A DNA stretch of 64,000 bases from Vicinamibacteria bacterium (GCA_963668695.2 CAXXLQ010000004.1:2016001-2080000); one strand, 5' to 3'; shown: positions 11,041 through 44,521, counted from the stretch's first letter. The notes: generated by a model not told the origin, from the letters alone. Numbers and translations are program-made.

Positions 11041-12322
11041 TAGCCGGTTGGCGCCGAAGGCAAGGACGCCGCGGCCGGCGCGGGCCTTCGCCGTCCTGCT
11101 CGGCGGAGCGATGCTTGCCTCGACCGCCTATCTCCTGGTCCTGTCGATCACGCCGCTCCTGTCCCGCCGGTATCTCCCCGATTCTTCGTGGATCGGCCTT
11201 CCGAACGCCGCCCTGATTCTGGGCGTGGCGGCTGGAACTCCGCTCCTGACCTGGCTCTTCGCGCGCCGGGGCAGGCCCTTTTCCCTGGGTCTGGGCCTCA
11301 GTGTGGCCGCCTGCGCCGCCGTAGGCCTGGCGCTCTCGGCGTGGTGGGAAGCGGGTTTCCTGGTCCACTTCGGCGTGAGCCTGATGCTCGGCTGCGGATA
11401 CGCCGGCTATCACCTGACCCGCTATACGGCGGCGCTGCTGGTCCCGGCGAGTCGGAGCGGAAGGGCGATCGGGCTCGTGGTCTGGGTGGCCGTGGCCGGT
11501 GCCTTCGTCGCGCCGCTCATTTTCGGGTGGATCGAGCGAATCGTCGCGCCCCGCGGGAGCGAGGCGTTTTCGCTTACCTATCTGTGCGCCGCAGCCTTGT
11601 TTGGGCTCGCCGCCGTCCTGTTCCTGCGCAGCCGGTCGCTTCGGGCGCGGCGTGCGCTCGGGGTCCGCCCGGTCGAACCGAAGCGGGAACGGGTCCCTCA
11701 GCCATCCGAATCGTCAGCGCTCGGGCGGACTTTCCGGCTCGCCGTCGTCTCGCTGGTTACGGCGCAGTCGGGGATGATGGTCCTCATGACGATGGCCCCG
11801 CTTCAGATGATGGGAAGCGGGGGTTCCCTTTCCGGGCTCGGAGCGATGATGGGCGCCCATAATCTGGGCATGTTCGCCCTGTCTCCCGTGGTCGGCATCC
11901 TGTGCGATCGCTTCGGCGAGCGTCCCATCATCGCGCTCGGCGGCGCGACGCTGGTTGCGGCGGGGCTCCTGGCCGCGTTTGGTCCCGGCCACGGGGTCGG
12001 GCTCGGCGTCGCGCTCTATCTCGTGGGTCTCGGCTGGTGTCTGGCCTTCGTGGCCGCGAGCACCCTGCTTTCGGAGGGGCCGGACTCACCGGCCAAGGTA
12101 CGGCGGCAGGGCTTCGCGGACGCGCTCAACTGGCTGATTGCCGCCGTCGCCTGCGTCACTTCGGGCGCCCTCATGACGCAGTTCGGATTTCAGGCCGTCG
12201 CTTTTGCGTGCGTGACGCTGGGCCTGGTCTCCCTCGCCGCCGCCCTCGCCGGCTTCGCCCACCCCTCTCCCGAACGTCACGCTCGTCAGGTGGTTCCCGG
12301 ACGGGACCACGAACTGGAGTAG
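11027..12322 (+). CDS. MFS transporter
   Basis: About 12 hydrophobic segments; GILCDRFGER motif-A-like sequence. Confidence 0.88.
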   Translation: MNPLSSRLAPKARTPRPARAFAVLLGGAMLASTAYLLVLSITPLLSRRYLPDSSWIGLPNAALILGVAAGTPLLTWLFARRGRPFSLGLGLSVAACAAVGLALSAWWEAGFLVHFGVSLMLGCGYAGYHLTRYTAALLVPASRSGRAIGLVVWVAVAGAFVAPLIFGWIERIVAPRGSEAFSLTYLCAAALFGLAAVLFLRSRSLRARRALGVRPVEPKRERVPQPSESSALGRTFRLAVVSLVTAQSGMMVLMTMAPLQMMGSGGSLSGLGAMMGAHNLGMFALSPVVGILCDRFGERPIIALGGATLVAAGLLAAFGPGHGVGLGVALYLVGLGWCLAFVAASTLLSEGPDSPAKVRRQGFADALNWLIAAVACVTSGALMTQFGFQAVAFACVTLGLVSLAAALAGFAHPSPERHARQVVPGRDHELE

Positions 12323-12622
12323 ATCCGGATCGTTAACCTGGATTCGGTTGGGGCCCCGTCCGGGAAGCCCGGCGCTGCGCGCCGGGCTTCCGAAGTGCGG
12401 CGAGAGCCGCGCGGAGACCCCGGAGCGGGAGGGGTTGGGGTCGGGGGACCCGACTCCCAGCCGCTCCTGGCTCGGGAATCGGAACTCCCTTGCGCGCTCA
12501 AGCGCGCGGCGGCGAGTCCCGATTCGACGTTTTCTGATTGTGAGAGGGGGAGTTCCCCCTTTCACACTTTCCCCCGAACATGCGGGCGGTTCACCCTGCG
12601 GGTTCGCCGCCATCAGTTTTTT
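12290..12622 (-). repeat. Structured repeat family E, copy 1 (extra ~95-bp insert)
   Basis: Reverse complement has aaaaaactgatggcggcgaac, gtgaaaggggg..cccc, gaatcgggactc...gagttccgattc, ccggcgcgcagcgccgg and terminal long hairpin. Confidence 0.75.
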
Positions 12623-12826
12623 CGGACGGGAGTCCCCGCCACCCCCACCTCTGACCCTCCCAACCTTGGTGTGACCGCATCTCCCAGTGCGCTCCGCCAA
12701 TCCGCGTCACGACGCACACCAGGCTGACACCGCCACTCATCCCCAATTGGAGCGCCGGTCTGAAGGCCCTCTCCGGGAGGACTGACTGGCGCTCCCTCAT
12801 CCCCCCACCCGGGAAGGCCCCACCCC

Positions 12827-13351
12827 CTACAAGTACCGATCCTCCAGCACCCGGCGGTGATGGATCGCGTGGCCCACCGTCAGAAAGCAGATGGCGCGCA
12901 CCGTGGCGCGGGCGCCGCTCGCTTCCCCGCTCCGGCCGAGGGCGGTCTCGTCGAAAGAGCGCATCAGACTCACCGTCGCGTGGCGGATCGTCTCCAGTTC
13001 ATCGAGAAGCGAGGCCAGGGAACGCCCGCGGTGTCCGGAGTTGGCCACGTAGGGATCCTGTTCCATCCCGGGTAGCGAAGTGTCGTCGCCCCGGGCGAAG
13101 CGCAACGCACGCACCGACATGATCCGCTCCACGTCGGCGATGTGGCCGACGACCTCCCGAATGGACCACTTCCCGGGCGCATAGCCCCGCGAGGAAGCGT
13201 CCTCCGATACACCCGCGAGGAGCGCGCGGAGCGTCGCCATTTCCTTGAGCGCACTTCCCGGAAGATCGCCGCCCTCCGGCACCAGGCGGATGTAGTTCCG
13301 GTAGTAGTCGGCGCACTCATCAGGCTGGGGTGGGGTCCACATGTCTTTCAT
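12827..13351 (-). CDS. DinB family protein
   Basis: YAPGKWSIREVVGHIADVER and GHAIHH motifs. Confidence 0.88.
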   Translation of the reverse strand: MKDMWTPPQPDECADYYRNYIRLVPEGGDLPGSALKEMATLRALLAGVSEDASSRGYAPGKWSIREVVGHIADVERIMSVRALRFARGDDTSLPGMEQDPYVANSGHRGRSLASLLDELETIRHATVSLMRSFDETALGRSGEASGARATVRAICFLTVGHAIHHRRVLEDRYL

Positions 13352-13405
13352 CGTAAGCGAACCGCTGCCGGTACTATCCAGCGCCACCTCCGGAGGATCC
13401 TTCCC

Positions 13406-13888
13406 ATGCGTTCTTTCTCTTCTCCCGTTTTTCTCGGCTGCGCCCTGCTGTCGCTCCTGGCGCTTTCCTGCACCGGGCCGGTGAACGTGGACATGGAAGT
13501 CCCGAAGCCCGAGAAATCCCGCCTGGACGGGCGCATTCCTCCCGTCGGCCCGTATTCCGCGGGAATCGAGTATGGGGACATCGTCTTCCTCGCCGGCCAG
13601 ATCGCCCTCAATCACGAGGGCGGCGGGCTCGTCGAGGGCGGAATCGCCGAGCAGACCCACCAGGTCATGCAGAACCTGCAGGCCGTTCTCGAGGAGGCCG
13701 GACTCGGTTTCGGGGACGTGGTCCGAAGCGGCGTCTTTCTCGCCGACGTGAACGATTTCGGGGCGATGAACGAGGTGTACGCCTCCTACTTCCCCGAGGG
13801 TGGGATTCCGCCGGTGCGCACTACGGTGGCGGTGGCCGACATCCCGCTCGGCGCGCTCCTCGAAATCGACATGATCGCGGTGCGCTGA
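13406..13888 (+). CDS. RidA/YjgF family protein with lipoprotein signal
   Basis: GPYS, LAGQI, DFGAMNEVY, PVRTTV, LLEID; GGAGG RBS; N-terminal LLSLLALSC. Confidence 0.85.
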   Translation: MRSFSSPVFLGCALLSLLALSCTGPVNVDMEVPKPEKSRLDGRIPPVGPYSAGIEYGDIVFLAGQIALNHEGGGLVEGGIAEQTHQVMQNLQAVLEEAGLGFGDVVRSGVFLADVNDFGAMNEVYASYFPEGGIPPVRTTVAVADIPLGALLEIDMIAVR

Positions 13889-13927
13889 TCGGCCGGCAAA
13901 CGGTCACCCGCCACCCACCGGCTGCCA

Positions 13928-14145
13928 GCAGCCGGTGGATAAAGTGGCGTGAGCGCCGAGGCTGGCCAGTTCTCCCGGTGGGGGCGAGGCGCCCGGCTGA
14001 CAAGGCGTGCAAGGGAGGAGCCCCCACCGGGAGAACTGGCCCGAGTGTATTTCGACCGAAGCGCAACGCAGAGCGCCTCGAAGAGGCGCGGTTCAGCCGG
14101 GATGAATCGCCCGCCGAACGCCGCGTGACTTTGTCCACCGGCTGC
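13928..14145. mobile_element. MITE family A copy with two 20-nt modules
   Basis: GCAGCCGGTGGATAAAGT...ACTTTGTCCACCGGCTGC ends; modules at 13966 (+) and 14020 (-). Confidence 0.8.
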
Positions 14146-14159
14146 TAGTCTCCCGTCCC

Positions 14160-15482
14160 GTGACCGGCGGCAACGGAGGTCCGGGCCGGGGGCTCGGCCT
14201 TTCCCTCTGGACCGCCGCCATGTTCGTGGTGGCGAACATGATCGGGACCGGGGTCTTCACGAGCCTTGGCTTCCAGGTCGCCGCGGTCCCCTCCGAGTTC
14301 CCCGCGCTTCTCCTCTGGGTTGTGGGGGGCCTCGTCGCCCTCGCCGGGGCGCTGGTCTATGGCGAACTCGGGGCGGCGCTTCCCCGTTCCGGCGGGGAGT
14401 ACAACCTGCTCCGCCGGAGTTTTCACCCCGCTGCCGGCTTCGCTGCCGGCTGCGTTTCGGCCACTATGGGATTTGCGGCGCCCACCGCCCTCGCGGCGGT
14501 GGCGATGGCCACCTATCTGCGGCCGTTGTTCCCGGGGATAGAACCCGTCCACTTCGCCGCGGTGGTCGTCGTGGCGTTCACCGCCGTCCACTCCCTGCCG
14601 GTCCGCTGGGGCAGCGGGATCAACAACCTCCTGACCGCCGCCAAGATCGTGCTGGTCATCGCCTTCTGCTGCATGGGGTTCCTGGCCGGGGGGATCTCGA
14701 CGCCGCTGGTCCCGAAGCCGGGCGACTTCGGGCTCCTGCTCAGTCCGGGCTTCGCCGTGTCCCTGGTGTTCGTCTCCTACGCCTATACCGGGTGGAACGC
14801 CGCCGTGTACATCGTCGGGGACCTGAAACGCCCCGAACGCCTCGCCCGGGCCCTGGTGGCGGGCACGCTGCTGGTCACCGTCCTCTATTTCCTGGTCAAT
14901 CTCGTCATCCTGCGCGCGGTCCCCCTCGACGAACTCGCCGGGAGGATCGAGATCGGCTACCTGGCTGCCGAACGCATCCTGGGAGCCGCCGGGGGCCGGG
15001 TGATGGCCGCCGTGCTCGGCCTCGTCCTCGCGTCCACGGTAAGCGCGATGGTGTTCCTCGGACCGCGGGTGGTGCGCGCGATGGGGGAGGACGAGCCGTT
15101 CCTCAGGCCCCTCGGCCGCGTCGGCGCGGGCGGCATTCCCCACCGGGCCCTGTTGCTGCAACTCGCCATCACCCTCGTGCTCCTCTATTCCGGGACCTTC
15201 GAGCAGATCCTGCTCTACGCCGGCTTCACCCTGAACCTGGTGACGGCGGCCGCCGTCGCGGGCGTCTTCCGCCTGCGCGCCGGAAGGATTCCGGACGCCG
15301 TCCCCGGCCGTTTCCGGACCCCGCTCTATCCCCTCGTCCCCCTCTTCTTCCTCGGGATGAGTGGCTGGACCCTCGGCTACACGCTCCTCGAACGGCCCGC
15401 GGAATCCCTGCTCGGGCTCGCCACCGCCGCGGGCGGCGCCGTTATCTACCTGATCGCCAAGCGGGGGTCAGCGCCCGCGTAG
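14160..15482 (+). CDS. APC-family amino acid permease
   Basis: MIGTGVF, YGELGAALPRSGGEY, YAYTGWN motifs. Confidence 0.92.
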   Translation: MTGGNGGPGRGLGLSLWTAAMFVVANMIGTGVFTSLGFQVAAVPSEFPALLLWVVGGLVALAGALVYGELGAALPRSGGEYNLLRRSFHPAAGFAAGCVSATMGFAAPTALAAVAMATYLRPLFPGIEPVHFAAVVVVAFTAVHSLPVRWGSGINNLLTAAKIVLVIAFCCMGFLAGGISTPLVPKPGDFGLLLSPGFAVSLVFVSYAYTGWNAAVYIVGDLKRPERLARALVAGTLLVTVLYFLVNLVILRAVPLDELAGRIEIGYLAAERILGAAGGRVMAAVLGLVLASTVSAMVFLGPRVVRAMGEDEPFLRPLGRVGAGGIPHRALLLQLAITLVLLYSGTFEQILLYAGFTLNLVTAAAVAGVFRLRAGRIPDAVPGRFRTPLYPLVPLFFLGMSGWTLGYTLLERPAESLLGLATAAGGAVIYLIAKRGSAPA

Positions 15483-15600: not shown

Positions 15601-15612
15601 GGGGGTAATGCC

Positions 15613-17642: not shown

Positions 17643-18014
17643 AGGTCACCCCGCTGACCCGGTACGCCGGTTTCGGGCGAAGTTCGGCGGCAGCGATCTG
17701 GCCTGTCGTTTCCGGTTCAGTTTCTTGAATTCGTTTCTCCAGAATCCAGGCACCGGACACCTTGCGAGAAACTTGCGAGAAAAAGGTATAAAAGCAGTTC
17801 AATTCAATGACTTGGCCAGGGGCGTAGGAACCTCTGCGAACACGGTCCGCCTCTTGCCTATCGTGACTGTGGAGAAACGTGACCGAATCGCCTACAGTTT
17901 CGCACTTAGATGCGTGGACTTGTCGTTTCGACTCTTCGCGACTCAACGTGCTTGGGACTGCCCGTTCACTCGGGCTTTCTGATCATGGACTCATTCGAAT
18001 CCAGGGAGGGACTT

Positions 18015-21000
18015 ATGAGATCTTTTTTGTTTAGGACCGTTGCGTTGCTCGGCGTTCTGGGACTCGCGACGGGCGCTTTCGCCCAGACGTTCCAGGGCGG
18101 CATTCGCGGTGTGATTCGGGACGCCGACGGTGGCGTCCTTCCCGGCGTCACCGTGACGCTGAACAACCCGGACACTGGCGTGTCCCGGACCGCGGTTGCA
18201 AACGCAGTCGGGGAGTACAACTTCTCGAGCGTCCAGCCCGGCACCTTCACGCTCCGCGCTGAACTGAGCGGCTTCGCGCCGTACGTGAGCGAAGGGCTCA
18301 TCATCGGCGTTTCTTCGTTCCTGGTCTTGGACGCCACGCTCGTGATCGGTGGAATTGAAGAGACGGTGACCGTCACCGGCGAAACCCCGCTCATCGAGAC
18401 CGCGACCGCTTCGGTTGCTTCGTCCGTCACCCGGGCCGAACTCGACGTGCTGCCGACCCCGGGCCGGAACGTGTTCATCCTCGCGGTGGGCACGCCGAAC
18501 GTGGTCCACACCGGCAACCCGGTATGGGTGAAGCAGTCCGACCAGACGAACTCGTCCCTCCTCTCGCTGGGCGGCGGACCGCTCCGCGGCAACAACTACA
18601 CCGTGGACGGCGTCTCGACGACCGACCTCCGAAACCGCACCGCGATCATCCCGATCTTCGACGCGGTTCAGGAAATGAAGGTCCAGATCAACACCTACGA
18701 CGCCGAAATGGGCCGCACCGGCGGCGGCGTCTTCAACGTGATCGCCCGTGGCGGCACGAACAACTGGGCCGGCGGCGGCACCTGGCAGAAGCGCCCGGGC
18801 AAAGTGGACACGCTCTGGCGCGCGCTCTCCTACACCGACCAGTTGTCCTCTGACGCCAACCCGGACAGGACGTTCGCCGACCGTCCCTTCGACCTGTGGG
18901 GCGGCTCCTTCGGCGGCCCGATCCTGTCGGACCGGACCTTCTTCTGGGCGGCGGCCGAGGGATTCGAGGATCTCCTCGCCGACAACACCGAGGTCATCAT
19001 CCCCACTTCCGCCGAGGCGGCGGGCGACTTCTCCGGGAGCGGGACGACGATCTACAACCCGTTCGACCTCGACGCGAACGGAAACCGGCGGCCCTTCCCC
19101 GGGAACGTGATCCCGTCCCACATGGTCGACCCGGCGGGCCGCGGGCTGGCGCAGTTGCTGACCAACCTGGGGCCGGGCGGTCCGATCAGCTCCTCCGGAG
19201 CCCAGGCCACGACCGCGCTCCAGGCCGACCTGAACCTGACGCACGCCTTCTCGGACAACTGGCAGTCTTCGCTGAGCTACCTGTACTACACGTCGAAGGA
19301 AGGCGCCTTCCAGCAGTACACGGACCTGCTGGGTTTGGACAGCGCCCCCGCCTACGGGATCGGCGCTGCGGACCTGCTCCGGGACGTGCACGTGGTGGCC
19401 TTCAACAACACCTTCGTGGTGGGCGACGCCTCGGTGTTGACGCTGCGCTACGGCCAGATGTACTTCAACGACTCGGTGATCAATCCGGAGTACGGCATTG
19501 ACCAGATCCGGGGCGAGCTCGGTATCCAGGGCGGCTTCCTGGATCAGATCGGCGCGCAGGACGGCTACATCAGTCAGTTCCCATCGGTCAGCGTCTCCAA
19601 CTTCGGCGACGGCGGTTCGACGCACGGCTCCTGGGGCAATACCGACACCCAGTGGTGGTCGCGTGAGGTCAGCGGCACCTACTCGATGTTCCTCGGCAAC
19701 CACACTGTGAAGTACGGCGGACAGTGGCGGCGCATGGGTCTCCACAACGCGAGTTTCAGCAACGGCTTCAGTATGAGCTTCGCGCAGAAGTTCACCCAGG
19801 GCCCGAGCCCCACCGCGCCGGACAGCGGCTCCGGGAGCGGCTTGGCTGACCTGCTGCTCGGCATCCCGAACGGCGGCAGCGCCACGATCGCCCAGGCGGC
19901 CGACGTCTTCATCGACTACTACGGTGGCTTCATCCAGGACGACTGGCGCCCGAGCCAGAACCTGGTGCTGAACCTCGGACTCCGGGTGGAGCGCGAGAGC
20001 GGCCTCATGGAGGACGACAACGGCTTCGCCGTCGGCTGGGACCGGAGCAATCCTTACCCGATGCAGGTCGGCCTGGACACGAGTCTCGAGGGGTCCCTTC
20101 CGGGCTTCCCGCTCCGCGGCGGGCTCATGTATGCGGGCCTCGACGGCAACCCCACCCACCAGTGGGATCCGCCGGGTATCAAGCTCGGACCGCGCGTCGG
20201 CTTCGCCTACACGATCAACCCCGAGACCGTCATCCGTGGCGGTTACGCGGTCTTCTGGGCGCCCTACGCAATCCCGAGCGGCGGCGGCGCGTCGAACCTC
20301 GGGACCTACGGCTACACCAACGTCACCTCCCTCGCGACCAGTGTCGACGGCAAGACCCCGCCGACGGCGACCGCTTCGAACCCGTTCCCGAACGGCATCG
20401 GGAACCCGATCGGGAATGCCAACGGCCGCTTGCAGAACATCGGCGGGAACGTGTACTTCAACGAGCAGTTCCGCGCTTCGCCCTACATCAACAAGTGGTC
20501 CCTCGACCTCCAGCGCGACATCGGCAACGACCTCGCGGTGAAGATCGGCTACGTCGGCAGCCAGGGCGCCGACATCCCCATCGGCGGCACGAACAACTCG
20601 TCCATCAACATTAACCAGTTGGCTGACCAATACCTGTCGCTGGGCGACCGGTTGAACGACGAATATCCCAACCCGTTTTACGGTGATTCGCGCTTCGGGA
20701 GTTTCTCGGGTGCGGAAACGCTGCCGCTCGGCCAGCTCCTGCGTCCGTATCCGCACTTCCGGAACGTCTTGGCCCGCCACGTGAGTTCCGGCAAGTCGCT
20801 CTATAACGCCCTCCGGGTGGAGTTCGAGAAGCGGTTCCGGGGCAACTGGGGCGCCCGGATCAACTACACCTTCACGAAGCACGAGGACAACATCTACGAG
20901 AACAACCAGTTGCTGGAGAACGAGACGAACGTCATCTACAACACGCCCGACGAGTGTGCATTCGCCAAATGCGGGCCGCTGTCGGACGCCGACTACGGCC

Positions 21001-21527
21001 CGTCGCGGGTCCACGTGCCGCACCAGTTCAACATCAACGGCACCTACCGCACCCCCGGAGACAACCCGATCTTCAGCGGCTGGGCGCTTTCAGTGGTGAC
21101 GATCATGCGGAGCGGTTTCCCGGTGGTGGTCTACCAGAACTCGAACCCGCTGAGTTCCTACGGCTTCAACCACCAGCGGCCCACGAGCGCGAACCTGAGC
21201 GGCGGCGGCAACCCGACGGGAAACCACACCAGTTACCTTTCGGCTGGCGACGCGCAGCTCACCCAGGGACTCACGCTGAGCAACTCTCCGAACACCACGG
21301 CCTCGGTGCGCAGCCCGGTCCTCATCAACTGGGACGTCGCGCTCGAGAAGACCACGCGGATCTACGAGGACATGAACCTGACCCTGCGGTTCGAGTTCAT
21401 TGACCTCTTCAACCACGTGAATTGGCGCGGACCCCGCACGATTCTCGGTAACAGCAACTTCGGGAGCATCCCGGGTACCCGCGGCTACCCGAGGACCTTC
21501 CAGTTCATGGGCAAGATCACCTTCTAG
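18015..21527 (+). CDS. Oar-like TonB-dependent receptor with carboxypeptidase-regulatory-like N-domain
   Basis: Signal peptide AFA/Q, GVLPGVTVTL, NNYTVDG, YDAEMGRTGGG, QDDWR, C-terminal PRTFQFMGKITF; GGAGG RBS. Confidence 0.92.
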   Translation: MRSFLFRTVALLGVLGLATGAFAQTFQGGIRGVIRDADGGVLPGVTVTLNNPDTGVSRTAVANAVGEYNFSSVQPGTFTLRAELSGFAPYVSEGLIIGVSSFLVLDATLVIGGIEETVTVTGETPLIETATASVASSVTRAELDVLPTPGRNVFILAVGTPNVVHTGNPVWVKQSDQTNSSLLSLGGGPLRGNNYTVDGVSTTDLRNRTAIIPIFDAVQEMKVQINTYDAEMGRTGGGVFNVIARGGTNNWAGGGTWQKRPGKVDTLWRALSYTDQLSSDANPDRTFADRPFDLWGGSFGGPILSDRTFFWAAAEGFEDLLADNTEVIIPTSAEAAGDFSGSGTTIYNPFDLDANGNRRPFPGNVIPSHMVDPAGRGLAQLLTNLGPGGPISSSGAQATTALQADLNLTHAFSDNWQSSLSYLYYTSKEGAFQQYTDLLGLDSAPAYGIGAADLLRDVHVVAFNNTFVVGDASVLTLRYGQMYFNDSVINPEYGIDQIRGELGIQGGFLDQIGAQDGYISQFPSVSVSNFGDGGSTHGSWGNTDTQWWSREVSGTYSMFLGNHTVKYGGQWRRMGLHNASFSNGFSMSFAQKFTQGPSPTAPDSGSGSGLADLLLGIPNGGSATIAQAADVFIDYYGGFIQDDWRPSQNLVLNLGLRVERESGLMEDDNGFAVGWDRSNPYPMQVGLDTSLEGSLPGFPLRGGLMYAGLDGNPTHQWDPPGIKLGPRVGFAYTINPETVIRGGYAVFWAPYAIPSGGGASNLGTYGYTNVTSLATSVDGKTPPTATASNPFPNGIGNPIGNANGRLQNIGGNVYFNEQFRASPYINKWSLDLQRDIGNDLAVKIGYVGSQGADIPIGGTNNSSININQLADQYLSLGDRLNDEYPNPFYGDSRFGSFSGAETLPLGQLLRPYPHFRNVLARHVSSGKSLYNALRVEFEKRFRGNWGARINYTFTKHEDNIYENNQLLENETNVIYNTPDECAFAKCGPLSDADYGPSRVHVPHQFNINGTYRTPGDNPIFSGWALSVVTIMRSGFPVVVYQNSNPLSSYGFNHQRPTSANLSGGGNPTGNHTSYLSAGDAQLTQGLTLSNSPNTTASVRSPVLINWDVALEKTTRIYEDMNLTLRFEFIDLFNHVNWRGPRTILGNSNFGSIPGTRGYPRTFQFMGKITF

Positions 21528-21549
21528 GCGATCTCAACCCAGAACCTTG

Positions 21550-21580
21550 GGGGCGGGCCTTCGGGCCCGCCCCTTTTTTT
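21550..21580 (+). terminator. Rho-independent terminator
   Basis: ggggcgggcc-ttcg-ggcccgcccc followed by T7. Confidence 0.9.
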
Positions 21581-21593
21581 GTCGGAGCGCCGT

Positions 21594-33750: not shown

Positions 33751-34440
33751 ATGTTCTTCTTTGATCCTCTCTATTTCCTGATGCTGGCGCCCGCCATCGC
33801 GCTCACCCTGTGGGCGACGTTCAAGGTGAAGCGCACCTTCGCCCGCTACAACCGGGTCCCGGTCTCGAGCGGACGCAGCGGCCGCGAGACCGCCGAGATG
33901 CTGCTCCGCCGCCAGGGCATCCATATCCCCGTGGAGCAGCACCCGGGAGCGCTTTCCGACCACTACGACCCCCGTGTCCGGGTGCTCCGGCTCTCGCCCG
34001 AGGTGTACGGCGGACGGACGGTGGGAGCGGTGGCGGTGGCCGCCCACGAGGTCGGGCACGCCATGCAGCACCACGCCGGCTATCAGCCGCTGATGTTCCG
34101 TCAGGTTCTCGCGCGGCCGGCGAGTTTCGCTTCGAACATCTCCATTTTCCTGCTGATCGGCGGCTTCCTGTTCGGAGCTCTCGGGTTGGTTCAGCTCGGA
34201 ATCGCGCTCTTCTCGCTCGTCGTGCTGTTCCAGGTGGTGACACTGCCGGTGGAACTGAACGCTTCCCGGCGCGCCAAGGCGCTCGTCTGGGAAACCGGGA
34301 TCATCACCCCCGAAGAACGGCATGGCGTGTCCAAAGTACTGAGCGCCGCCGCGATGACCTACGTCGCCGCCGCTCTCACGGGCATCCTGACCCTGCTCTA
34401 CTACCTGCTCCGCTCCGGCTTTCTCGGCGGCGACGAATAA
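33751..34440 (+). CDS. Membrane zinc metallopeptidase (YugP-like)
   Basis: LSDHYDP, AAHEVGHA, TLPVELNAS, AAMTYVAA. Confidence 0.92.
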   Translation: MFFFDPLYFLMLAPAIALTLWATFKVKRTFARYNRVPVSSGRSGRETAEMLLRRQGIHIPVEQHPGALSDHYDPRVRVLRLSPEVYGGRTVGAVAVAAHEVGHAMQHHAGYQPLMFRQVLARPASFASNISIFLLIGGFLFGALGLVQLGIALFSLVVLFQVVTLPVELNASRRAKALVWETGIITPEERHGVSKVLSAAAMTYVAAALTGILTLLYYLLRSGFLGGDE

Positions 34441-34679
34441 ACGTCGCAGCGAACTCCGTTCGCTGCCCGCGTTTTCGGGGGAAAGTGTGAAAGGGGGGAT
34501 TCTCCCCTTTCACAAAACGGTAACGACGAATCGGAACTCGCCGCCGCCCGCCGCAGGCGGGCAAGGGAGTTTCGGTTCGCGGCGCGAAGCGCCGGGCGGT
34601 CCGGAACCGGGGTTCACCCCCAGTCCGTTCTACTTCCCGGACTCATTCGCGAACATGCCCCGGTTCCGGAGCGCTCGAC
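34437..34679 (+). repeat. Structured repeat family E, copy 2
   Basis: Scaffold hairpins plus terminal hairpin with unique loop; ends gctcgac. Confidence 0.78.
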
Positions 34680-34685: not shown

Positions 34686-34787
34686 CTGAGCGCCGCGGCG
34701 ATGACCTACGTTGCCGCGGCGCTCACCGGCGTCGTGACCCTGCTCTACTACCTGCTCCGCTCCGGCCTGCTCGGCGGCGACGACTAG
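34686..34787 (+). pseudogene. Diverged duplicate of the last 102 bp of the zinc peptidase gene
   Basis: Aligns without gaps to 34339-34440 with 11 mismatches, mostly third-position. Confidence 0.85.
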
Positions 34788-34849: not shown

Positions 34850-34951
34850 CCGGGATGGATCGCCAGCCGAACGCCGCGTGGGTTTCATCACCGGTTGTTC
34901 AGCCGGGATGGATCGCCGGCCGAACGCCGTGTGGGTTGTGCCACAGGCTGT
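34850..34951. mobile_element. MITE family A right-end remnant (two tandem right ends)
   Basis: cgggatggatcgcc...ccacaggctgt-TA. Confidence 0.7.
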
Positions 34952-35146
34952 TATGGCACCGACCTGGCCGGGGACGGCGAGACGCTCTGCTGGCCAGCGC
35001 CCCAGGGCAGTGACGCTCCGCCCCCCGCCCTCATGGCCAGCGACAGCGGAAGCGCGTACTCCCAACCACACTTACGTGACTGGGAAGGCCACCCCCAACC
35101 CCCCGCTCCCGGACCGCAATCCCGGATGACGAACTGCCGAACGCGC

Positions 35147-35395
35147 AAGAAACTCATGGCAGCGAACTTTGTTTGCTGCCTGCGATTTCGGGGGAAAGTG
35201 TGAAAGGGGGGATTCTCCCCTTTCACAAGAAGGTAACGACCAATCGGAACTCGCCGCCGCGCGCCTTGGCGCGCAAGGGAGTTTCGATTGCCGGCGCGGA
35301 GCGCCGGGCGGTTCGGGAGCGGGGCGCTTGGATCAGGCGGCTCTGATGTTTCCGCTGCTGATTTCTTGGTGCGCCCCGCCCCCGGACCGCTCGAC
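35147..35395 (+). repeat. Structured repeat family E, copy 3
   Basis: Same scaffold; ends gctcgac directly at the stop codon of the convergent TPR gene. Confidence 0.78.
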
Positions 35396-37054
35396 CTACT
35401 GTTGCATCGTGGTTTCGCCGACCATGGCTTCCGCGTCCGCCAGCCCCGGGAGATCCGGACCGCGCTCCGGAGTGCTGAGGAGCTGTTCGAAGTAGCGGCG
35501 GGCCGCTTCCTCGTCGCCGATAGCGGCCGCGGCGCGCGCGGCGCCGTAGAGCGAATGGGGCCGCTTCGCGGTCCGCTGGAGCGAGGTCTCGAAGACTTGA
35601 AGAGCCGTTTCGGCGTCGCCGGTATCGAGCAGCATGTCGCCTAGCAGCTCGTGGGCGGGCTGGATCGGCGAATCGATGGGGGACTCGCCCGGAGGCCCGG
35701 AGGGAGGCTCCATGCCTTCCGCCACCTCCACCGCCATGCGGAAGGCCTTGAGGGCGCCGTCGCGGTCGCCCTCGGCCTTGGCGAGCACGCCCGCCATCTC
35801 GTGGGCCATCACCGCCGCCTGCTCGGCGCCGCGCGGGTTCTCGTCATTCTCGAGCATCGCTTGGATCTTCTGCAGTCCTTCGAGCGCTTTCTTCGCGGTT
35901 TCGATGTCCCCGGTCTCGGCGGCGCTAACCCCGCGGGCATAGATCATCGCGCCGGCGGTGCGGTGGCCGACCTCGGGTTCGTCGCCGTCAATTTGCGCCA
36001 CCAGATCGTCCACCGGCTCGGGCTTCCAGCGCCGCGTCTCCACCGTGTGCAGGGCATCCATGCGGAGCCAGGTCTCTTTCATCCCGCCCGTCATTTCGTC
36101 GCGCTTGGTGAGTTCCCCGAACTCGTCGAGCAACGCCTGGGAGTCGTCGTAGCGGCCCTCCTCAAGGTAGGCGTAGAGGAGCCAATAGAGCGCGTGGTAG
36201 GAGTAGCGCGCCGGTGAGAGACCCTTCTTCTCCGCGCGGTCGATCGAGGCCTGGTAGGAACGGGTGTTGAGGCCCCGAACCTGGTCCCACATCCCGTGCT
36301 GAACGAAGATGTGCGAGGGCATGTGGAGCGCGTGCACCGCCGCCGGGGCGATGTCCGAGTACTTCTCGGCCGCGTAGAGCGCCACCGGGGCGTGCACCGG
36401 GTCGTCGTAGGCGTGGATCACGTAGTGGGCCGCGCCGGGATGGTCAGGGTTCTCCCGGAACACCCGCTGGGCGATGGCGCCGGCGCGCATGTCAACCCGC
36501 TGGCTGGCTCCGCCCCGGACCCGGGTGCGCATGAGGGCGAGCGCATGGAACGCCGCCGCTTCGAGATCGTCGGGATAGGCGGCCGTCAACTCCGCCAGCG
36601 CCGCCTCGTAATCGTCACTCCGTTCCTGAAGGTCGCCGGGTCCGTAGAGGATGTGGGTCGACTCGAGATAGCGCTTCTCGCGGTCGGTCTTCGCCTTCGC
36701 GACCCGCTCGGCGCGGGTCTTCCCGAGCTTCAGCAGCGCGGCCCGCGCTTTCGACATGTCCTGTCCCGCCGGGGCGTGGTGGCCGCCGGTATGGCTCAGG
36801 GCCTCTCCCCAGTAGGCGAGCGCGAAGTCGGGGTCGGCTGCCTGGGCGCGCTGGAACGCCTCGGCGGCGTCCTCCCACTCGAAGCTGTGGAGCAGGCCGA
36901 CGCCGTCGATGAAGTCCTTTTGGGCCGCCTCGTTACCGGAGTTCGGGAACGAGATGGTGCCGAGACCGCTCGACTGGGCGAGGACGGGGGAGGCTGCGAG
37001 GGCGAGGAGGGCCGCGCCCAGCGCAGCCCGCATACAGAGTGTCCGGAAAGTCAT
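35396..37054 (-). CDS. Secreted TPR-like protein
   Basis: Signal peptide VLA/Q; GVGLLHSF, HPGAAHYVIHAYD, HALHMPSHIF. Confidence 0.8.
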   Translation of the reverse strand: MTFRTLCMRAALGAALLALAASPVLAQSSGLGTISFPNSGNEAAQKDFIDGVGLLHSFEWEDAAEAFQRAQAADPDFALAYWGEALSHTGGHHAPAGQDMSKARAALLKLGKTRAERVAKAKTDREKRYLESTHILYGPGDLQERSDDYEAALAELTAAYPDDLEAAAFHALALMRTRVRGGASQRVDMRAGAIAQRVFRENPDHPGAAHYVIHAYDDPVHAPVALYAAEKYSDIAPAAVHALHMPSHIFVQHGMWDQVRGLNTRSYQASIDRAEKKGLSPARYSYHALYWLLYAYLEEGRYDDSQALLDEFGELTKRDEMTGGMKETWLRMDALHTVETRRWKPEPVDDLVAQIDGDEPEVGHRTAGAMIYARGVSAAETGDIETAKKALEGLQKIQAMLENDENPRGAEQAAVMAHEMAGVLAKAEGDRDGALKAFRMAVEVAEGMEPPSGPPGESPIDSPIQPAHELLGDMLLDTGDAETALQVFETSLQRTAKRPHSLYGAARAAAAIGDEEAARRYFEQLLSTPERGPDLPGLADAEAMVGETTMQQ

Positions 37055-37171
37055 GTGTGGTTCTCCTTGAGGAAATGAGCGGAACGCACCCTTGTACCAG
37101 ACAGCCGGGCCGTCGGCAAGCGTCCCACCGCGCGGCGGAACCGCGGTCCGGGTCGCCCCGGTGTTGCGGGG

Positions 37172-38131: not shown

Positions 38132-38192
38132 CCGCCGGAGTGTATGGGTTCTCCACCGCTCGGATCCCGTTCCCGCTTGCTACGCTTGCGGC

Positions 38193-39943: not shown

Positions 39944-40654
39944 TCAGAAGACCCCGAGCGCGGCTTCGCTCACCCGCACCAGCGCCCAGAGCACCGCCGC
40001 GGTCCCGAGCGGCACGAACAGGTTGTCGCTTCCGAAGGGGCAGACCGCTTCGATCCCGGCCGCCGCGGTCCCCGTCACCAGCCCGAAAGCGACCGCGGGG
40101 TGCCAGGAGAAGCCCGCCATCGTGTTGAGCACCAAGGCGACGACCACCCCCGTGACCAGGAACATCGCCATGCTCCCTTCCATCGTTCGCGAGTGGCCGA
40201 GGATCGTGTAGCGCCGGGTTCCGTAGCGCTTCCCGAAAACGGCGGCCGCAGCGTCGCCCAGCGCCATGGTGAGAAGGCCCGCCACCGCCACGAAGGCCTC
40301 GTCATTCGGGGCTCCGGGCCGGAAGAAGACGGCGAGCAGCGTAGCGAAGGAGATGGGGAAGAACACCGTGCCCAGGTTCGCCGGGTCGTCGTCGAGTGCG
40401 GGCAGCAGCCGGAAGCGGTGGATGACGTAGTTGGAGACCACGAAGGTCACGGGCGGGATGATTGCCACCCGCCAGTCGGAGAAGACGAAGACCGTCGGCA
40501 CCACCCAGAGCCCGACGCCGGCGTGGACGATCTTGCGCGCGGTGTCCGGCGAGGTTTTGCCGCCCCGGCGCAGCAGTTCGGTGCCGAGCAGCAGCGCGCC
40601 GACATAGCCGTAGCTGAGGAGGAGGGCGGTGGGGTGGGGCAGCGGAAGGGTCAT
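39944..40654 (-). CDS. Phytol/dolichol kinase-like membrane protein (CTP_transf_1 clan)
   Basis: RKIVH, LGDAAAAVFG, RTMEGS, SDNLFVP. Confidence 0.85.
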   Translation of the reverse strand: MTLPLPHPTALLLSYGYVGALLLGTELLRRGGKTSPDTARKIVHAGVGLWVVPTVFVFSDWRVAIIPPVTFVVSNYVIHRFRLLPALDDDPANLGTVFFPISFATLLAVFFRPGAPNDEAFVAVAGLLTMALGDAAAAVFGKRYGTRRYTILGHSRTMEGSMAMFLVTGVVVALVLNTMAGFSWHPAVAFGLVTGTAAAGIEAVCPFGSDNLFVPLGTAAVLWALVRVSEAALGVF

Positions 40655-40697
40655 GCGCGCTCTGCGAGCCCGGTGCGCTTCCGCGTCTGTGCCGGCA

Positions 40698-41571
40698 TCA
40701 GGTGGGCCCTGGAGTTCGGAGTTTTTCCAGCCGTTCGATCAACTTCCATACATCCGTAAAAGAGGACGCGCCCGAGTCGGAGACGCGCTTTGCATTTGAG
40801 ACCGCTGTCGGGATCCGATCGGCGATGCGTTCGAAGACTCCGGCGTCGTTCTTCTGGTAGTCCGGTAGATGGCGCCTTAACAGCCGGTGGTGAAACCCAC
40901 GTGAGCGCCGAGGCCGGCCAGTTCTCCCGGTGGGGGCGAGGCCCAGTTCTCCCGGTGGGGCCAGTTCTCCCGGTGGGGGCCCGGCTGACAAGGCGCGTGA
41001 GGGAGGAATACCGGGTGTATTTCGACCGAAACGCAACGCAGAACGCAGCGAAGCGGGGTGGTTCAGCCGGGATGGATCGCCGGTCGAACGCCGCGTGGGT
41101 TTTGCCACAGGCTGTTAGTTCCCGGGTAACTTGAGCGCACGCTGACTGGCCGGGAACCCCGGCAAAAGGCTTGGTCGTGAACTCGAAATGCAGGAGGAGC
41201 CAGAATTCGAAACAGGGCCTCGAGACGGCGACGTGAAATGCCGGCGCTGCGGTCTGCACGCCGGCGCGTATTGCTTTGGATCGAAAATCGGCTACAGCCA
41301 ACTCCCGGCCGTCGTGATCCAGGACGCACCAGATTTCGTCCCCCGGAGACATGCTGCGCGCTTCGCGGCGAACTCGTTCTTGTAGTCGCGCCAACCCAGT
41401 ACCCGGCTCACTTCCCAGCACCCGAACGCTAGGCAATCGGTACCACTGCTTGAGGGCCGAGAAATAGTGGGGCTCGGTCCGTGTACCTTCGCAGAGAATC
41501 AGAATCGAGGAACGGCCCTTGCGCCTCGCTCGCGTACGTTTCCCGAACGGGCGCTGTTTCGCCGAAGCCAC
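40698..41571 (-). pseudogene. RloB-family gene split by a MITE
   Basis: ILCEGTRTEPHYF, WCVLDHD, SRPCFEFWLLLHF; C-terminus continues in another frame; removing 238 bp restores a 211-aa ORF. Confidence 0.88.
40880..41115. mobile_element. MITE family A, 236 bp, TA target duplication
   Basis: TA-ACAGCC...GGCTGT-TA within rloB; three 20-nt modules. Confidence 0.9.
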
Positions 41572-42855
41572 TCAGTCGGTAGGAACGAACTGCGGCGTCG
41601 AGGTCACCGGAATCCCTCCGTAGCGTCCAGTCAGATAGCCGCGCTCCAAGGCTTCCCGCCTCCGAGGGTGGAAGTGGGAGAGCGGAGTGAGGTTTGCGGC
41701 CTCACTTGGTCGTTCCTTGTCGGTCAGCCAGATCTGGCCGCGGTCCAGCGCTCCGCCAAGGAGAGTAGTGTCGTGCAGAGTGGCAATCAGCTGACCCCGC
41801 CTGCTGCTGTCGCTTCCACTGTTGAGACGTCGCAGGAGCGCTTCCACGAGCAGCGGATGGAGGCTGTGGTCAAGCTCGTCTACTACTAGAACCCGATCGT
41901 TATCGAGGATGTCGAGAAGCGGCCATGCCAACGCAAAGAGTCGTTGGGTGCCGTCCGATTCTTGTTCCAGATCCAGGAACTGAAGATCGCTACTTCCGTC
42001 GACTGCGTGGCCGAGTTGCGTCTGGAAAGACTCCACAGAATCCGCACCTGTCTTTGACAACTCCTTGAGGATGCTGGGCGGCACACTTTCCCTCATTGAT
42101 TCGAGGCTTGTCTTCTCTCTCCTGACTGACACATCGGCCGCCGTGATGTCGGCGGCCCGCAACAGCTCCAGTACACGCCGCTTTTTCGTTTCGTCGGCGA
42201 GGACTGCCTCGGGCGTGTAGGTGTCCGACAAATAGTCGGGTCCGATACCCGCCAACCGCTTCCGAAACCACTCGACTACCGGAGTGAAGATGTCGCTGTT
42301 GAGTTGGGCAGCAACGGACACAAGCAGGGCGTTCTGGCGGGTGCTGCGCCGCCAGACTTCCTTGGGACCCGACACCGAGTGGCCGAAGGTCCACTCGTAG
42401 CTCTGGTTCCCCACATCCCAGCGCCGCTCCAACAGCAAGCGCTTCCGGCCATCCGGGGGCCAGACCAGGAGAGACTCGGAGCGAACCCGCTCCCGGTCGA
42501 GGGAGAACGTGTACTCGTAGCAAGAGCCGTCCTCAATGAAGCTGACTTCGAAGATCGTTGGGCGTGTCCGGGTCTCGGTGTCGAAGAGGAACGGCGTATA
42601 CGGAATTTCCTCGCCGGCTTGGGTGCTGGTTGCCGATTTGACCACGAAGCTCTTGGCAAACATCAGCCCCAGGAGCAAGCGAGACTTGCCACTGCCGTTG
42701 GGGCCGTAGATCGCCGTCACCCGGTTCAGCCGGGGTGCCCTCCGGGAGCCGCTGTCGAATGCGTGTAGATCACTTGCCCGCGTTACGGCTTGGACACTCA
42801 GCTCGTGCCGTTCCCGAAAGCATGCATAGTTCGTCAATGCGAAGGCGACTAACAT
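41572..42855 (-). CDS. RloA-like AAA_21 ATPase (putative abortive-infection/defence partner of RloB)
   Basis: IYGPNGSGKS Walker A, ESDGTQR, VVDELDHSLHP, QLIATLHD, YLTGRYGGIP; lower GC. Confidence 0.88.
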   Translation of the reverse strand: MLVAFALTNYACFRERHELSVQAVTRASDLHAFDSGSRRAPRLNRVTAIYGPNGSGKSRLLLGLMFAKSFVVKSATSTQAGEEIPYTPFLFDTETRTRPTIFEVSFIEDGSCYEYTFSLDRERVRSESLLVWPPDGRKRLLLERRWDVGNQSYEWTFGHSVSGPKEVWRRSTRQNALLVSVAAQLNSDIFTPVVEWFRKRLAGIGPDYLSDTYTPEAVLADETKKRRVLELLRAADITAADVSVRREKTSLESMRESVPPSILKELSKTGADSVESFQTQLGHAVDGSSDLQFLDLEQESDGTQRLFALAWPLLDILDNDRVLVVDELDHSLHPLLVEALLRRLNSGSDSSRRGQLIATLHDTTLLGGALDRGQIWLTDKERPSEAANLTPLSHFHPRRREALERGYLTGRYGGIPVTSTPQFVPTD

Positions 42856-43086
42856 GGCTTGCCTCCTGGGATAACGGCCATATTTTACTGATTGTTGACG
42901 ATTTCTACAAGAAAATCTATCTTGTTTCGGCAGATCACGCGTTTGGCGTTCGATTGGGGGTCGCGGCCGCAACCCTCATCCGTCCGTCGTCGCCGGGTAT
43001 CGCTGTGGTGGTCCGCGCCGGCGCATTGGCGCGAACCATCGCGACTTGTCCCAGTGCCGCCAGTGGATATTCGGCGCGCGTCCCGC

Positions 43087-43764
43087 TCAGGCTGTGGCTC
43101 CCGCCCGCGCCCGCAGGAAACTGTCCCAGTCATCCACGTCCAGGAGTTCCTGCTTCGTTGCCGGGACGACCACGAGATCCTGTCGGTGTCTTGAGAGGAC
43201 GCGCCCGGCGCCCCGGTCCCGGCCTCCGTCTTCGATCGCGCGGGTCCCCGAAAGTTCGAGCACCTCGGGAAAAAGGCGCCTTCGGAGCACCACCGGCAGG
43301 CCCCAGGTTCCCGTCCGCTGCATAGCCGAAGTGGCCGGTACGGCCGCGGCGGGGGGGTGCCGGGGCTCGGCCGCGGCGGCGACCAGCCTGCGAATGAGGG
43401 TGGCGGAAAGGAAGGGTTGGTCCAGCGGGGCAACCACCGCCCAGAAGACGTGCCGCTCGGCGGCCAGCGCCCGGATTCCGACCTGGAGCGACGAGAGCAT
43501 GCCCCGCTGGTAGGCAGGGTTTGGGACGGCGCGCACCGCGAGTCCCCGGAGCTCAGGGGCGATCTCCCGATGGGCGTGGCCGAGCACGGCGATCACCGGG
43601 TCGAGACCGGCGGCGATGAGCGTCTCCGCGGCGGCGCGGATCAGGGTCCGGCCGGAGCCGTCCGGGTGGGGGAGGAGGGCCTTGGTGCGGCGCATCCGCT
43701 TCGACTCGCCGGCGGCGAGGAGGATCCCGGCGGCTGCCGCGGGACGTTCCGCGGTCGTCGCCAG
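43087..43764 (-). CDS. MocA/YgfJ-like NTP transferase (molybdopterin cytidylyltransferase-like)
   Basis: ILLAAGESKRM, KALL, GMLSSL, DQP, LDVDD; motif begins upstream of the first ATG (43695), start uncertain. Confidence 0.8.
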   Translation of the reverse strand: MATTAERPAAAAGILLAAGESKRMRRTKALLPHPDGSGRTLIRAAAETLIAAGLDPVIAVLGHAHREIAPELRGLAVRAVPNPAYQRGMLSSLQVGIRALAAERHVFWAVVAPLDQPFLSATLIRRLVAAAAEPRHPPAAAVPATSAMQRTGTWGLPVVLRRRLFPEVLELSGTRAIEDGGRDRGAGRVLSRHRQDLVVVPATKQELLDVDDWDSFLRARAGATA

Positions 43765-44052
43765 CGGGTCGGTCGGGGGAATGGCGGAGGGTCCTGAGAG
43801 GTAGGGGAGGGGAGCAGCGAGTGTATTGCGGTCCTCACGAGAATCGGAGGAGCTTCGCGGTAGGCTGGAAACCCGTGAGACATCAGTTTCTTCTCCTTCC
43901 TCGTCTCCTGCGGAGAAGAGGGCGTCTCAGGCACGCCTACCGTCCCGCTGGCGCCGCCGCGGTTTCGCCCGCGTTCCGCGGGCGGTGCCAGTCTGAAGAC
44001 TGGCGTTCCCGGGCGTGCCGTCTTTCGGTGGGTTGGCGTATCGCTCAACGCG

Positions 44053-44521
44053 AAAAAAACTGATGGCAGCGAACTTGTTCGCTGCCCGCCTGACCGGGGG
44101 GAAAGTGTGAAAGGGGGGTACCCCCCCCTTTTCACAAAAAGGTAACGACCAATCGGAACTCGCCGCCGCGCGCCTTCGGCGCGCAAGGGAGTTTCGATTG
44201 CCGGCGCGAAGCGCCGGGCGGTTCGGAAGGGGGGCCACCTTTGATCAGGCTAGGCGACCAGCCATCAAACCGACCAAGCGCCCCCCTTCCGGAACGCTCG
44301 ACGACGGGGAAAGCGTGAAAGGGGGAACTCCCCCTTTCGCAAAAAAGGCAACTACGAATCGGAACTCGCCGCAGTGCGCCTACGGCGCACAAGGGAGTTT
44401 CGATTCCGGCGCGAAGCGCCGGGCGGTTCGGGAACGGGGCGTTCACCCCACACCGAGCAGACGGTGCAAGACCAAAGGTCCGATTGGGGAGTGAACGCCC
44501 CGTTCCCGGACCGCTCCGGAC
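44053..44521 (+). repeat. Structured repeat family E, tandem copies 4 (44053-44302) and 5 (44306-44521)
   Basis: Same scaffold, different terminal loops; copy 5 ends at the stop codon of the convergent gene. Confidence 0.78.

Follow-up and report, generated by a model that had tools for sequence, protein, structure and literature searches.

Five copies of family E in the window

The DNA analysed here is a 64,000-nt stretch of the genome of a Vicinamibacteria bacterium (GCA_963668695.2 CAXXLQ010000004.1:2016001-2080000; hereafter, the window), which carries five copies of a structured repeat that we call family E. A family E unit is ~250 nt long and is composed of five co-oriented hairpin modules, designated A, B, C, D1 and D2 in that order, with A-rich linkers separating the hairpins on the + strand (for family E, the A-to-D2 reading direction, as in an initial annotation of the window). 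Specifically, module A is an A-run followed by GGCAGCGAAC..GTTCGCTGCC, module B is GGGGGAAAGT followed by GTGAAAGGGGG..CCCCCTTTCAC, module C is an outer stem AATCGGAACTC/GAGTTTCGATT around an internal loop and a GC stem, module D1 is CCGGCGCG-A-AGCGCCGG, and D2 is a long terminal hairpin. The studied genome (G000) is a 4.10-Mb assembly with contigs C1–C4, 67.5% GC, 91.7% complete, and was compared with the relatives G001, G004, G008, G009 and G010. The five window copies are listed below, with the basis of each assignment in brackets.

44053..44302, + strand: c44a, full unit (sequence and alignment). A-run 44053-44059; A hairpin 44065-44086; B 44096-44135; C 44150-44200; D1 44201-44217; D2 hairpin 44216-44299, with its centre at ~44236-44279; terminal GAC 44300-44302.
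44306..44516, + strand: c44b, without module A (sequence; orthologous copies with the same junction in G001, G004, G008 and G009). B 44306-44345; C 44355-44405; D1 44406-44422; D2 44421-44516.
35147..35395, + strand: c35k, full unit (sequence, open reading frames and RNA-library contigs). A 35147-35180; B 35190-35226; C 35241-35290; D1 35291-35307; D2 35306-35392.
34437..34679, + strand: c34k, full unit (sequence and open reading frames). A hairpin 34446-34466; B 34477-34514; C 34527-34578; D1 34579-34595; D2 34594-34676.
12292..12622, − strand: c12k, with an extra module (sequence, open reading frames and alignment). A 12622-12585; B 12575-12540; C 12526-12476; ~90-nt insert 12475-12386; D1 12386-12368; D2 12370-12292.

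The initial annotation had described five copies sharing an ordered hairpin series, and all five are present where it placed them; the series is incomplete in c44b, which is without module A, and is interrupted in c12k by the insert between C and D1, a module that recurs at ~327,700 of contig C4 and in contig C1. The contact with stop codons of oppositely oriented genes, also part of that annotation, is real for c12k, c35k and c44b. In particular, the stop codon of the convergent gene 35396-37054 (− strand) lies 3 nt past the D2 of c35k, that of the convergent gene 44522-45175 (− strand) lies 5 nt past the D2 of c44b, and the D2 of c12k contains the last codons and the stop codon (12320-12322) of the convergent gene 11027-12322 (+ strand). 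In c34k, it is the A-run that overlaps a stop codon, the TAA (34438-34440) of the co-directional gene 33751-34440. A small open reading frame starting from an ATG in module A was rejected as a candidate, since by inspection its frame is not kept between copies.

Family E is a large family of the genus

Five copies understate the size of the family, which exceeds 100 copies in G000. BLAST with the five window copies gives 160 merged loci, iterated nhmmer searches give 108 non-overlapping matches to the scaffold (A to D1), 73 of them full length, and a fuzzy pattern search for the D1 motif gives 90 occurrences at ≤3 mismatches. The architectures comprise ABCD, BCD, lone D, ABC arrays and arrays of four D units, and modules are also found truncated, single and in tandem. 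Copies are clustered, with 36 of ~100 at 2.0-2.4 Mb of G000.

Family E was found in 15/15 other genomes searched from the genus, more weakly in other genera of the host family (3/9 genomes), and in 0/16 genomes representing two further families of the same order. When one genome per species was scanned for the exact B motif, the matches listed lay mostly in metagenome-assembled genomes (MAGs) titled Acidobacteriota, Vicinamibacteria or 'Candidatus Marinacidobacterium'; a few single matches came from Oscillospiraceae-type MAGs and one from a Gemmatimonadetes MAG. Assignment to a known Rfam family, which the initial annotation had named as one way its view could fail, did not occur: at gathering thresholds, the whole window yields only a tRNA and a suhB/mmgR match, both elsewhere in the window, and an E-value scan of 43900-44650 yields chance-level matches only. 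A search of the literature, excluding paper supplements, found no description of family E in print.

The suhB/mmgR match itself (21511-21587, 45.4 bits against a gathering score of 41) lies at the 3′ end of the open reading frame 17910-21527. The mmgR family is alphaproteobacterial, and the match may be a false positive or may reflect a wider distribution of that family; because the matches of family E fall mostly in acidobacterial MAGs, it is probably no sign of an alphaproteobacterium.

The hairpins are kept by compensatory change and are indicated to fold on the + strand

The hairpins of family E are kept by compensatory change, as the initial annotation had proposed from a few stems. For the scaffold, we aligned 34 sequences, four from the window and 30 from other genomes, the latter picked by an exact B motif, a choice that by itself leaves the 5′ arm of B invariant. 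In this alignment, RNAalifold predicts 46 pairs, of which 11 show double compensatory changes. One-sided changes, counted from the pair table, comprise ~32 G·U cells versus 6 A·C cells, and module C contains a conserved G·U in 22 of the 34 scaffolds. The loop of D1 is a G-N-A triloop, in which N is any base; GCGAAGC is an unusually stable DNA mini-hairpin.

D2, described in the annotation as a long terminal hairpin with a conserved base and a differing interior, proves to be general, following 86 of the 90 D1 motifs. Its stem is 19-23 bp in 61/86 cases, its loop is 40-44 nt in 47/86 and 35-39 nt in 13/86, and its total length is mostly 84-88 nt, the same as in hairpins from other genomes. A position-wise comparison of 114 hairpins shows that the foot, GGGCGG/CCGCTC, is conserved, that position -2 is G·T in 98/111, that position 4 is T·G in 50, T-A in 32, C-G in 29 and C·A in 0, that positions 5-11 alternate among 2-4 pair types, and that positions 12-15 (GGGG:CCCC) are almost invariant. 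At the seven variable positions below this core, 681 of the 756 cells from 108 D2 hairpins are Watson-Crick (90%), the rest being GT/TG (47), AC/CA (7) and other (21); the count compares arm with arm and is independent of any folding program. The D2 arms (GGGCGGTTCGG, a variable part and GGGG) are by inspection not self-palindromic, although no systematic search for single arms was made.

The conserved G·T wobbles, the large excess of G·T over A·C intermediates and the G-N-A triloop indicate that the family folds best on the + strand, as RNA or as single-stranded DNA. The same wobbles bear on palindrome self-correction, which the initial annotation had named as a possible trivial source of the covariation. 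Because self-correction would erase fixed mismatches, the conserved G·T mismatches argue against it.

D2 ends at the 3′ ends of convergent genes

The D2 end of family E lies at, or a few bases from, the point where a convergent gene ends, whether a stop codon or the 3′ end of a tRNA; the contact seen in the window holds genome-wide. Gene ends for these counts were taken from a codon-model caller (covering 83% of the genome) and ARAGORN, a crude set that agrees with the open reading frame listing for the window copies. Of 72 well-formed D2 hairpins, 52 face a convergent feature and 20 face a gene start; 37 end at -25 to +13 nt from a convergent 3′ end, the distribution peaking at -2 and again at +3 to +5, and in seven of these 37 the convergent feature is a tRNA, at +1 to +7. 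On C4 alone, the D2 end abuts a convergent 3′ end in 34/67 cases versus 2.5% of random intergenic points in random orientation (binomial p 3e-36, the copies being not fully independent), and convergent spacers hold 27/67 elements versus 14% of all spacers. The A side, with the one exception of c34k, lies at least 75 nt from any gene.

Read on the reverse strand, the element opens with (G)GTCGAGCGGTCCGG directly behind the stop codon, with some copies providing the stop codon or last codons of the neighbouring gene, and closes with the A hairpin, ATCAG and a T-run. This layout raises the possibility, which we consider unlikely yet worth weighing in full, that family E is a cis-acting RNA module, a portable 3′ untranslated region (UTR) whose structure is kept by selection on mRNA stability or termination: the stop codon would be followed by nuclease-blocking D2-D1-C-B hairpins and then by the A hairpin and a U-run as an intrinsic terminator. 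The exact placement of the D2 end, the enrichment in convergent spacers and the distance of the A side from genes all fit such a module. So do the shortened forms, namely a D2 joined to module A and a T-run (reverse strand), without D1, C or B, right behind a stop codon at C4:480362-480490, and an A-only form behind a stop codon at locus L136 of a relative.

The reverse complement of module A resembles an intrinsic terminator in being a 9-10-bp GC-rich hairpin followed by a T-run, and scores as terminator-like in a consensus scan for c44a and c34k; it differs in that the T-run begins 5 nt past the stem and in that the hairpin is one module of a repeat, and the scan overall does not exceed shuffled sequence (12 versus 9.0 ± 3.6 expected). 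The RNA evidence consists of contigs from four metatranscriptome runs of one study, which carry no strand or end information. Two contigs from two runs, X1 (35305-37072) and X2 (35285-37079), span the gene 35396-37054 and the D2 of c35k, and end where the repeated scaffold starts, as an assembly is expected to break at a repeat. Contigs of the gene 44522-45175 end at its stop codon, short of D2, although contigs cannot prove ends. Further against a 3′-UTR module, 20 of the 72 D2 ends face a gene start, and the wobbles favour the other strand: on the mRNA strand, each conserved G·T pair is turned into an A·C mismatch.

A structured RNA read from the + strand, from A to D2, would accommodate the wobbles. 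Such a multi-copy RNA might act as a small RNA, or as an antisense RNA whose 3′ hairpin, D2, lies against the convergent gene end, and we hold this to be rather doubtful. G·U is tolerated on the + strand, the intermediates being G·U and not A·C, the hairpins are separated by A-rich linkers, the D2 loops are G-poor on this strand (C 36, A 23, G 24.5, T 17%), and pairing is retained in copies that are ~19% diverged. Against this, no promoter-like conserved block was found upstream of module A (~0-0.3 bit upstream of position -5), a sigma-70 scan found a promoter-like site at no copy, and, as stated above, Rfam offers no match. RNA-library depth over c44a and c44b is low versus the neighbouring gene, a weak point as it comes from contigs only, and the truncated and shuffled modules and tandem D arrays look more like a repeat than like an RNA gene.

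Copies are polymorphic and D2 units are exchanged

Close species and strains are polymorphic for copies of family E, and D2 units are exchanged from copy to copy. Gene order around the window is retained in the five relatives. The spacer that holds c34k and c35k is 'empty' in G008 and G010, where the convergent genes are 54-61 nt apart with one short native GC hairpin between them; G004 has one element, between the stop codon and the native hairpin, and G001 has other repeats and a remnant D2 3′ arm. At the c44b site, the junction to the stop codon is identical in G001, G004, G008 and G009, and another repeat occupies the site in G010. G001 and G004 share the D2 of c44b at 96-98% identity; it is unalignable with those of G008 and G009, though the scaffold is alignable. 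There is no counterpart of c34k in G001, G004, G008 or G010, and its site in G009 has only a module-A-like hairpin, right behind the stop codon.

A wider comparison set 30 G000 units (1.98-2.30 Mb) against 220 kb of G001 and 180 kb of G004. Among the 60 comparisons, 21 have a good flank match (81-97% identical) and no D1 within 330 nt, 12 have an element, 18 have a partial flank match and nine have none. Ten D2 units at matched sites were comparable, three at ≥93% identity and seven at 0.61-0.76. By inspection, one of these seven is a truncated extraction of the same type, one has the same stem with a diverged loop, and the other five are of a different type that is present elsewhere in G000. 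Homology between species usually stops at, or ≤3 nt from, the stop codon, and several D2 types appear again at non-syntenic places in other genomes.

Exchange is also seen within G000. The region C4:304-421 kb has a second haplotype, contig C1, at ~99.5% identity. At the tRNA-Leu site, the entire D2 differs between C1 and C4, and the adjoining C-D1 differs at 3-4 of ~90 positions; C1 also has an extra 1.15 kb between two copies of the 5′ half of B. We read these differences as probable ectopic recombination and gene conversion between family members.

Among 41 full C4 elements, the median identity is 0.81 for the scaffold and 0.63 for the D2 interior, similarity in the scaffold does not correlate with similarity in D2 (Spearman 0.05, Mantel p 0.25), and only two dispersed pairs have a scaffold identity ≥0.93. 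Judged by these identities, family E is old, with reshuffled modules and no recent burst in G000.

The precise replacement of D2 between 99.5% identical haplotypes, the D2 types that are 96-98% identical across species with more divergent scaffolds, and the unlinked variation of scaffold and D2 lead us to keep open, as a long shot, a reading in which D2 is an exchangeable hairpin cassette. The conserved five-hairpin scaffold, folded from the + strand as single-stranded DNA or RNA, would display a free segment of 40-45 nt, and whole D2 units would be swapped site-specifically at gene and tRNA 3′ ends by a hypothetical hairpin-recognising enzyme, so that family E would be a diversifiable specificity or tagging system and not passive repeat DNA.

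Still less probable, in our judgement, is an attC-like structure-specific recombination site, in which a recombinase would read D2 through its mismatched feet; this would explain the replacement of whole D2 units. Integron attC sites are imperfect palindromes with conserved mismatched feet and a variable centre, fold strand-specifically as single-stranded DNA, and lie directly behind stop codons. D2 shares conserved feet with fixed mismatches, a variable, length-constrained centre, a strand-specific fold and the post-stop position, and its replacement between D1 and the tRNA is precise. It differs in that family E is dispersed on both strands beside core syntenic genes and seven tRNA genes, not in co-oriented cassette arrays, and in that D2 is part of a larger mosaic. 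Moreover, the replaced D2 is accompanied by extra substitutions in module C, as expected of an ordinary gene-conversion tract, and no recombinase is linked to family E, although an integron integrase was not searched for.

Several side observations concern these loci. Regions of C4 are represented a second time, as alternative haplotypes with 97.6-99.9% identity, by contigs C1 (144 kb) and C3 (31 kb), which fits the 9.3% 'contamination' figure of G000; the breaks in colinearity of C1-C3 with C4 lie at repeat elements and at a 14-kb C1-only segment beside a tRNA-Val. c34k is flanked by two diverged copies of the last 90-100 nt of the gene 33751-34440 (34352-34440 and 34699-34787). The detached downstream copy is the nearer to the orthologues (93.8% versus 88.8% to G001), which suggests that the present 3′ end of this gene may have come in together with c34k. 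At sites that hold family E in G000, G001 has a further repeat family (CGACGGGAGTTTCGC, a hairpin and GATGCTGGCCAGTTCTCCCGGTGGGGGCC), seen at ~1050-1450 of its locus L112 and near the orthologue of G000:C4:2202999. The window itself holds two other repeats: one of ~400 nt at 45180-45610, between the genes 44522-45175 and 45615-46304, for which G001, G004 and G008 have dozens of copies (75-93% identity), and one of ~104 nt at 34850-34953, consisting of two tandem units starting GGGATGGATCGCC, with many copies (85-92% identity) in relatives.

The D2 centre shows no detectable constraint

The centre of D2 consists of 40-45 nt with no detectable constraint. In 90 centres of typical length, no conserved motif was found, with information of ≤0.5 bit at every position. 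The initial annotation had held that the interior usually forms an internal loop plus an inner stem. Because the loops show no folding advantage over shuffled sequence (mean z -0.21, median 0.14, 11% of the 90 below -2), this is not a feature of the family. Its description of the loops as copy-specific is overstated rather than wrong. The median pairwise loop identity in G000 is 0.57 versus 0.55 for shuffled loops, and only 1.4% of loop pairs pass the 99.9th percentile of shuffles; 25 of 65 loops nevertheless have a partner at ≥0.8 identity, many of these being tandem or haplotype duplicates, and D2 types recur elsewhere, as described above.

Complementarity of the loops to their flanks or to the genome, which the annotation had proposed as a check, does not exceed shuffled controls. 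For 57 unique loops compared with the genome after masking of family members, the mean best match is 28.9 versus 27.6 bits, and the best non-family match equals the shuffle maximum, 34.2 bits; the top two genome matches are partial family copies 114 and 445 nt away. Searches of phage and plasmid collections with c44a and c44b (whole) found no match, and neither did a scan of IMG/VR viral contigs with the B-module motif, in which single loops were not scanned; viruses of this lineage are perhaps absent from these collections. The annotation had also set out what a family without programming should look like, namely loops that diverge gradually and have no target matches. No target matches were found, but the replacement of whole D2 units means that the loops do not change by gradual divergence alone.

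A search for linked enzymes in G000 gave a similar answer, in that no copy was found adjacent to an IS110, HUH or TnpB gene. There is one IS110 gene, a PF01548 match at C4:482375-483622, and none of the 108 scaffold matches adjoins it; the nearest family piece is the D2-A remnant at C4:480362-480490, ~1.9 kb off and behind another gene. TnpB gave no match above threshold and one sub-threshold match elsewhere, and Y1/RAYT (REP-associated tyrosine transposase, where REP is repetitive extragenic palindrome; PF01797) gave no match in this 91.7% complete assembly.

These results bear on the proposal of the initial annotation that D2 carries a programmable segment, with the scaffold presenting the D2 centre as a specificity segment in the manner of an IS110 bridge or seek RNA, an OMEGA RNA or a CRISPR RNA. 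The anatomy of a constant scaffold with a variable 40-45-nt centre, the lack of a similar partner for most centres and the conservation of some D2 types across species are what such a guide would predict. The resemblance to the bridge (seek) RNAs of IS110/IS1111 is nonetheless general, limited to a conserved scaffold with variable segments: family E does not lie beside a DEDD transposase gene, and one genome holds >100 copies with different loops, for which no target or donor complementarity was found. With the lone IS110 gene unlinked, no TnpB or Y1 gene found, no loop positions conserved, no internal architecture above chance, no match in phages, plasmids or viral contigs, and a D2 stem that varies where a fixed protein-binding scaffold would not allow variation, the guide reading is disfavoured, there is no positive evidence for it, and we consider it the most improbable of the explanations.

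A separate REP family accompanies the RAYT genes of relatives

One further feature lies beside the copies at the distal end of the region.

43984..44010, + strand: Z-type REP hairpin (GGTGCC-hairpin-GGCGTTCC), ~43 nt upstream of c44a; a separate REP family.

The pattern GGTGCC-hairpin-GGCG[CT]T[CT]C, which misses variants, has ~385 matches in G000. For 15 of the 75 A modules, a Z-type REP in the same orientation ends 27-123 nt upstream, versus 1.7% of random intergenic points; 11 of these 15 pairs are spaced 39-49 nt, and one Z is inverted beside the 15 co-oriented ones.

Y1 matches over the Pfam cut-off are present in 12 of 13 other genus genomes searched, at 1-2 per genome. In the RAYT loci of relatives (L134-L139), the gene is flanked by inverted arrays of the short Z-type REP, the classic RAYT-REP picture. 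Modules of family E were not found within ~1.5 kb of five of the six RAYT loci inspected; the sole exception has an A module nearby. Two side observations on Z concern its own distribution: G000 and G004 retain Z-type REPs without a RAYT match, and the IS110-family gene of G000 is surrounded by Z-type repeats.

Family E as a proposed mosaic interspersed repeat

Family E is without coding capacity of its own, high-copy, structured and intergenic, and it is present throughout the genus; the broader claim of the initial annotation, a non-autonomous repeated element or non-coding RNA family, therefore holds. With confidence a little better than even, we favour the reading that it is a new genus-wide mosaic repeat akin to REPs, bacterial interspersed mosaic elements (BIMEs) and REPINs (REP doublets forming hairpins), and not a guide RNA. 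A miniature inverted-repeat transposable element, which would have terminal inverted repeats and a related autonomous insertion sequence, was rejected, since the A-run side of family E is unrelated to its D2 side and no transposase is linked.

On this mosaic-repeat reading, the single-strand fold would serve the family's own propagation or maintenance. Most likely, the folded single-stranded DNA would be the substrate of a trans-acting hairpin-recognising enzyme, of the HUH/Y1 type as for REPs, and recombination between copies would help the family to spread. Differences between the centres would stem from a constraint limited to length and pairing and from a reshuffling of D2 modules through ectopic gene conversion, and not from target programming. 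Placed behind genes, the element would be tolerated and, at least sometimes, carried in the 3′ UTR of its neighbour.

In REPINs, the spacer is less conserved, being constrained only in its length and its ability to pair, and compensatory changes occur often (PMC3116915); this precedent would explain a constant frame with a variable centre without guide function. D2 is like REPINs in being a long hairpin with conserved ends, a less conserved but length-constrained centre and compensatory changes, and in having hundreds of intergenic copies with a fold read as single-stranded DNA (PMC3116915). It differs in that its arms are not themselves short palindromic REPs and in that it is one module of a five-hairpin, co-oriented mosaic. 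Family E also differs from a REP-RAYT system, in that the RAYT genes of relatives are flanked by the Z-type REP and G000 has no RAYT match. The likeness does not make family E a REPIN, since the RAYT association that defines REPINs was not found for it and neither an enzyme, a target-site duplication nor a recent copy was found.

BIMEs of enterobacteria and BOX elements of pneumococci are extragenic mosaics of a few ordered modules, often in 3′ UTRs. Family E resembles them in that its modules are ordered, vary in number and are sometimes missing, with a REP linked at a fixed distance. It differs in being longer, with five distinct hairpins, all co-oriented, in having one end precisely placed at stop codons or tRNA ends, and in having a hypervariable terminal hairpin. 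In BIMEs, REPs alternate in orientation and have linker motifs between them, whereas family E modules and Z are co-oriented (15 same, 1 inverted).

Several observations weigh against this mosaic-repeat reading. No enzyme is tied to the family, the Y1/RAYT domain being without a match in G000 and the RAYT genes of relatives having the Z-type REP at their flanks. No recent transposition was seen, given the median scaffold identity of 0.81 and the two dispersed pairs ≥0.93, so that the polymorphism could be loss or allelic replacement, and no target-site duplication or clean target motif is definable from filled and empty sites. Pairs kept in ~19% diverged copies suggest selection on each copy, which favours a host function such as one at the RNA level. 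Among G000, G001 and G004, the c44b copies have D2 units at 96-98% identity and scaffolds at only 0.75-0.78 (lowered by the missing module A), and some D2 centres may therefore be constrained. The folding strand (+) is opposite to the strand in the mRNA of the neighbouring gene, so that carriage in a 3′ UTR cannot explain the structure. Finally, GC skew places the origin of G000 near 1.08 Mb and the terminus near 3.06 Mb, and there is no replication-strand bias (24 + versus 33 - elements on one replichore), unlike IS200/IS605-type elements.

For the organism, family E represents a large, old, structurally constrained repeat system beside an ordinary REP/RAYT system in an uncultured Acidobacteriota lineage. 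Its copies mark hot spots of strain-level rearrangement, such as the 1.15-kb indel between two B modules and the tandem arrays, and will break short-read assemblies; they also reshape gene 3′ ends, with some genes ending inside an element. Relaxed constraint together with module exchange can produce a constant scaffold with a variable loop in the absence of any guide function, which is a caution for scans that seek programmable RNAs. The combination of strand-asymmetric covariation with exact stop-codon and tRNA contact is one that no identified enzyme explains, and it makes family E a reasonable substrate in the search for a new hairpin-specific DNA or RNA activity.

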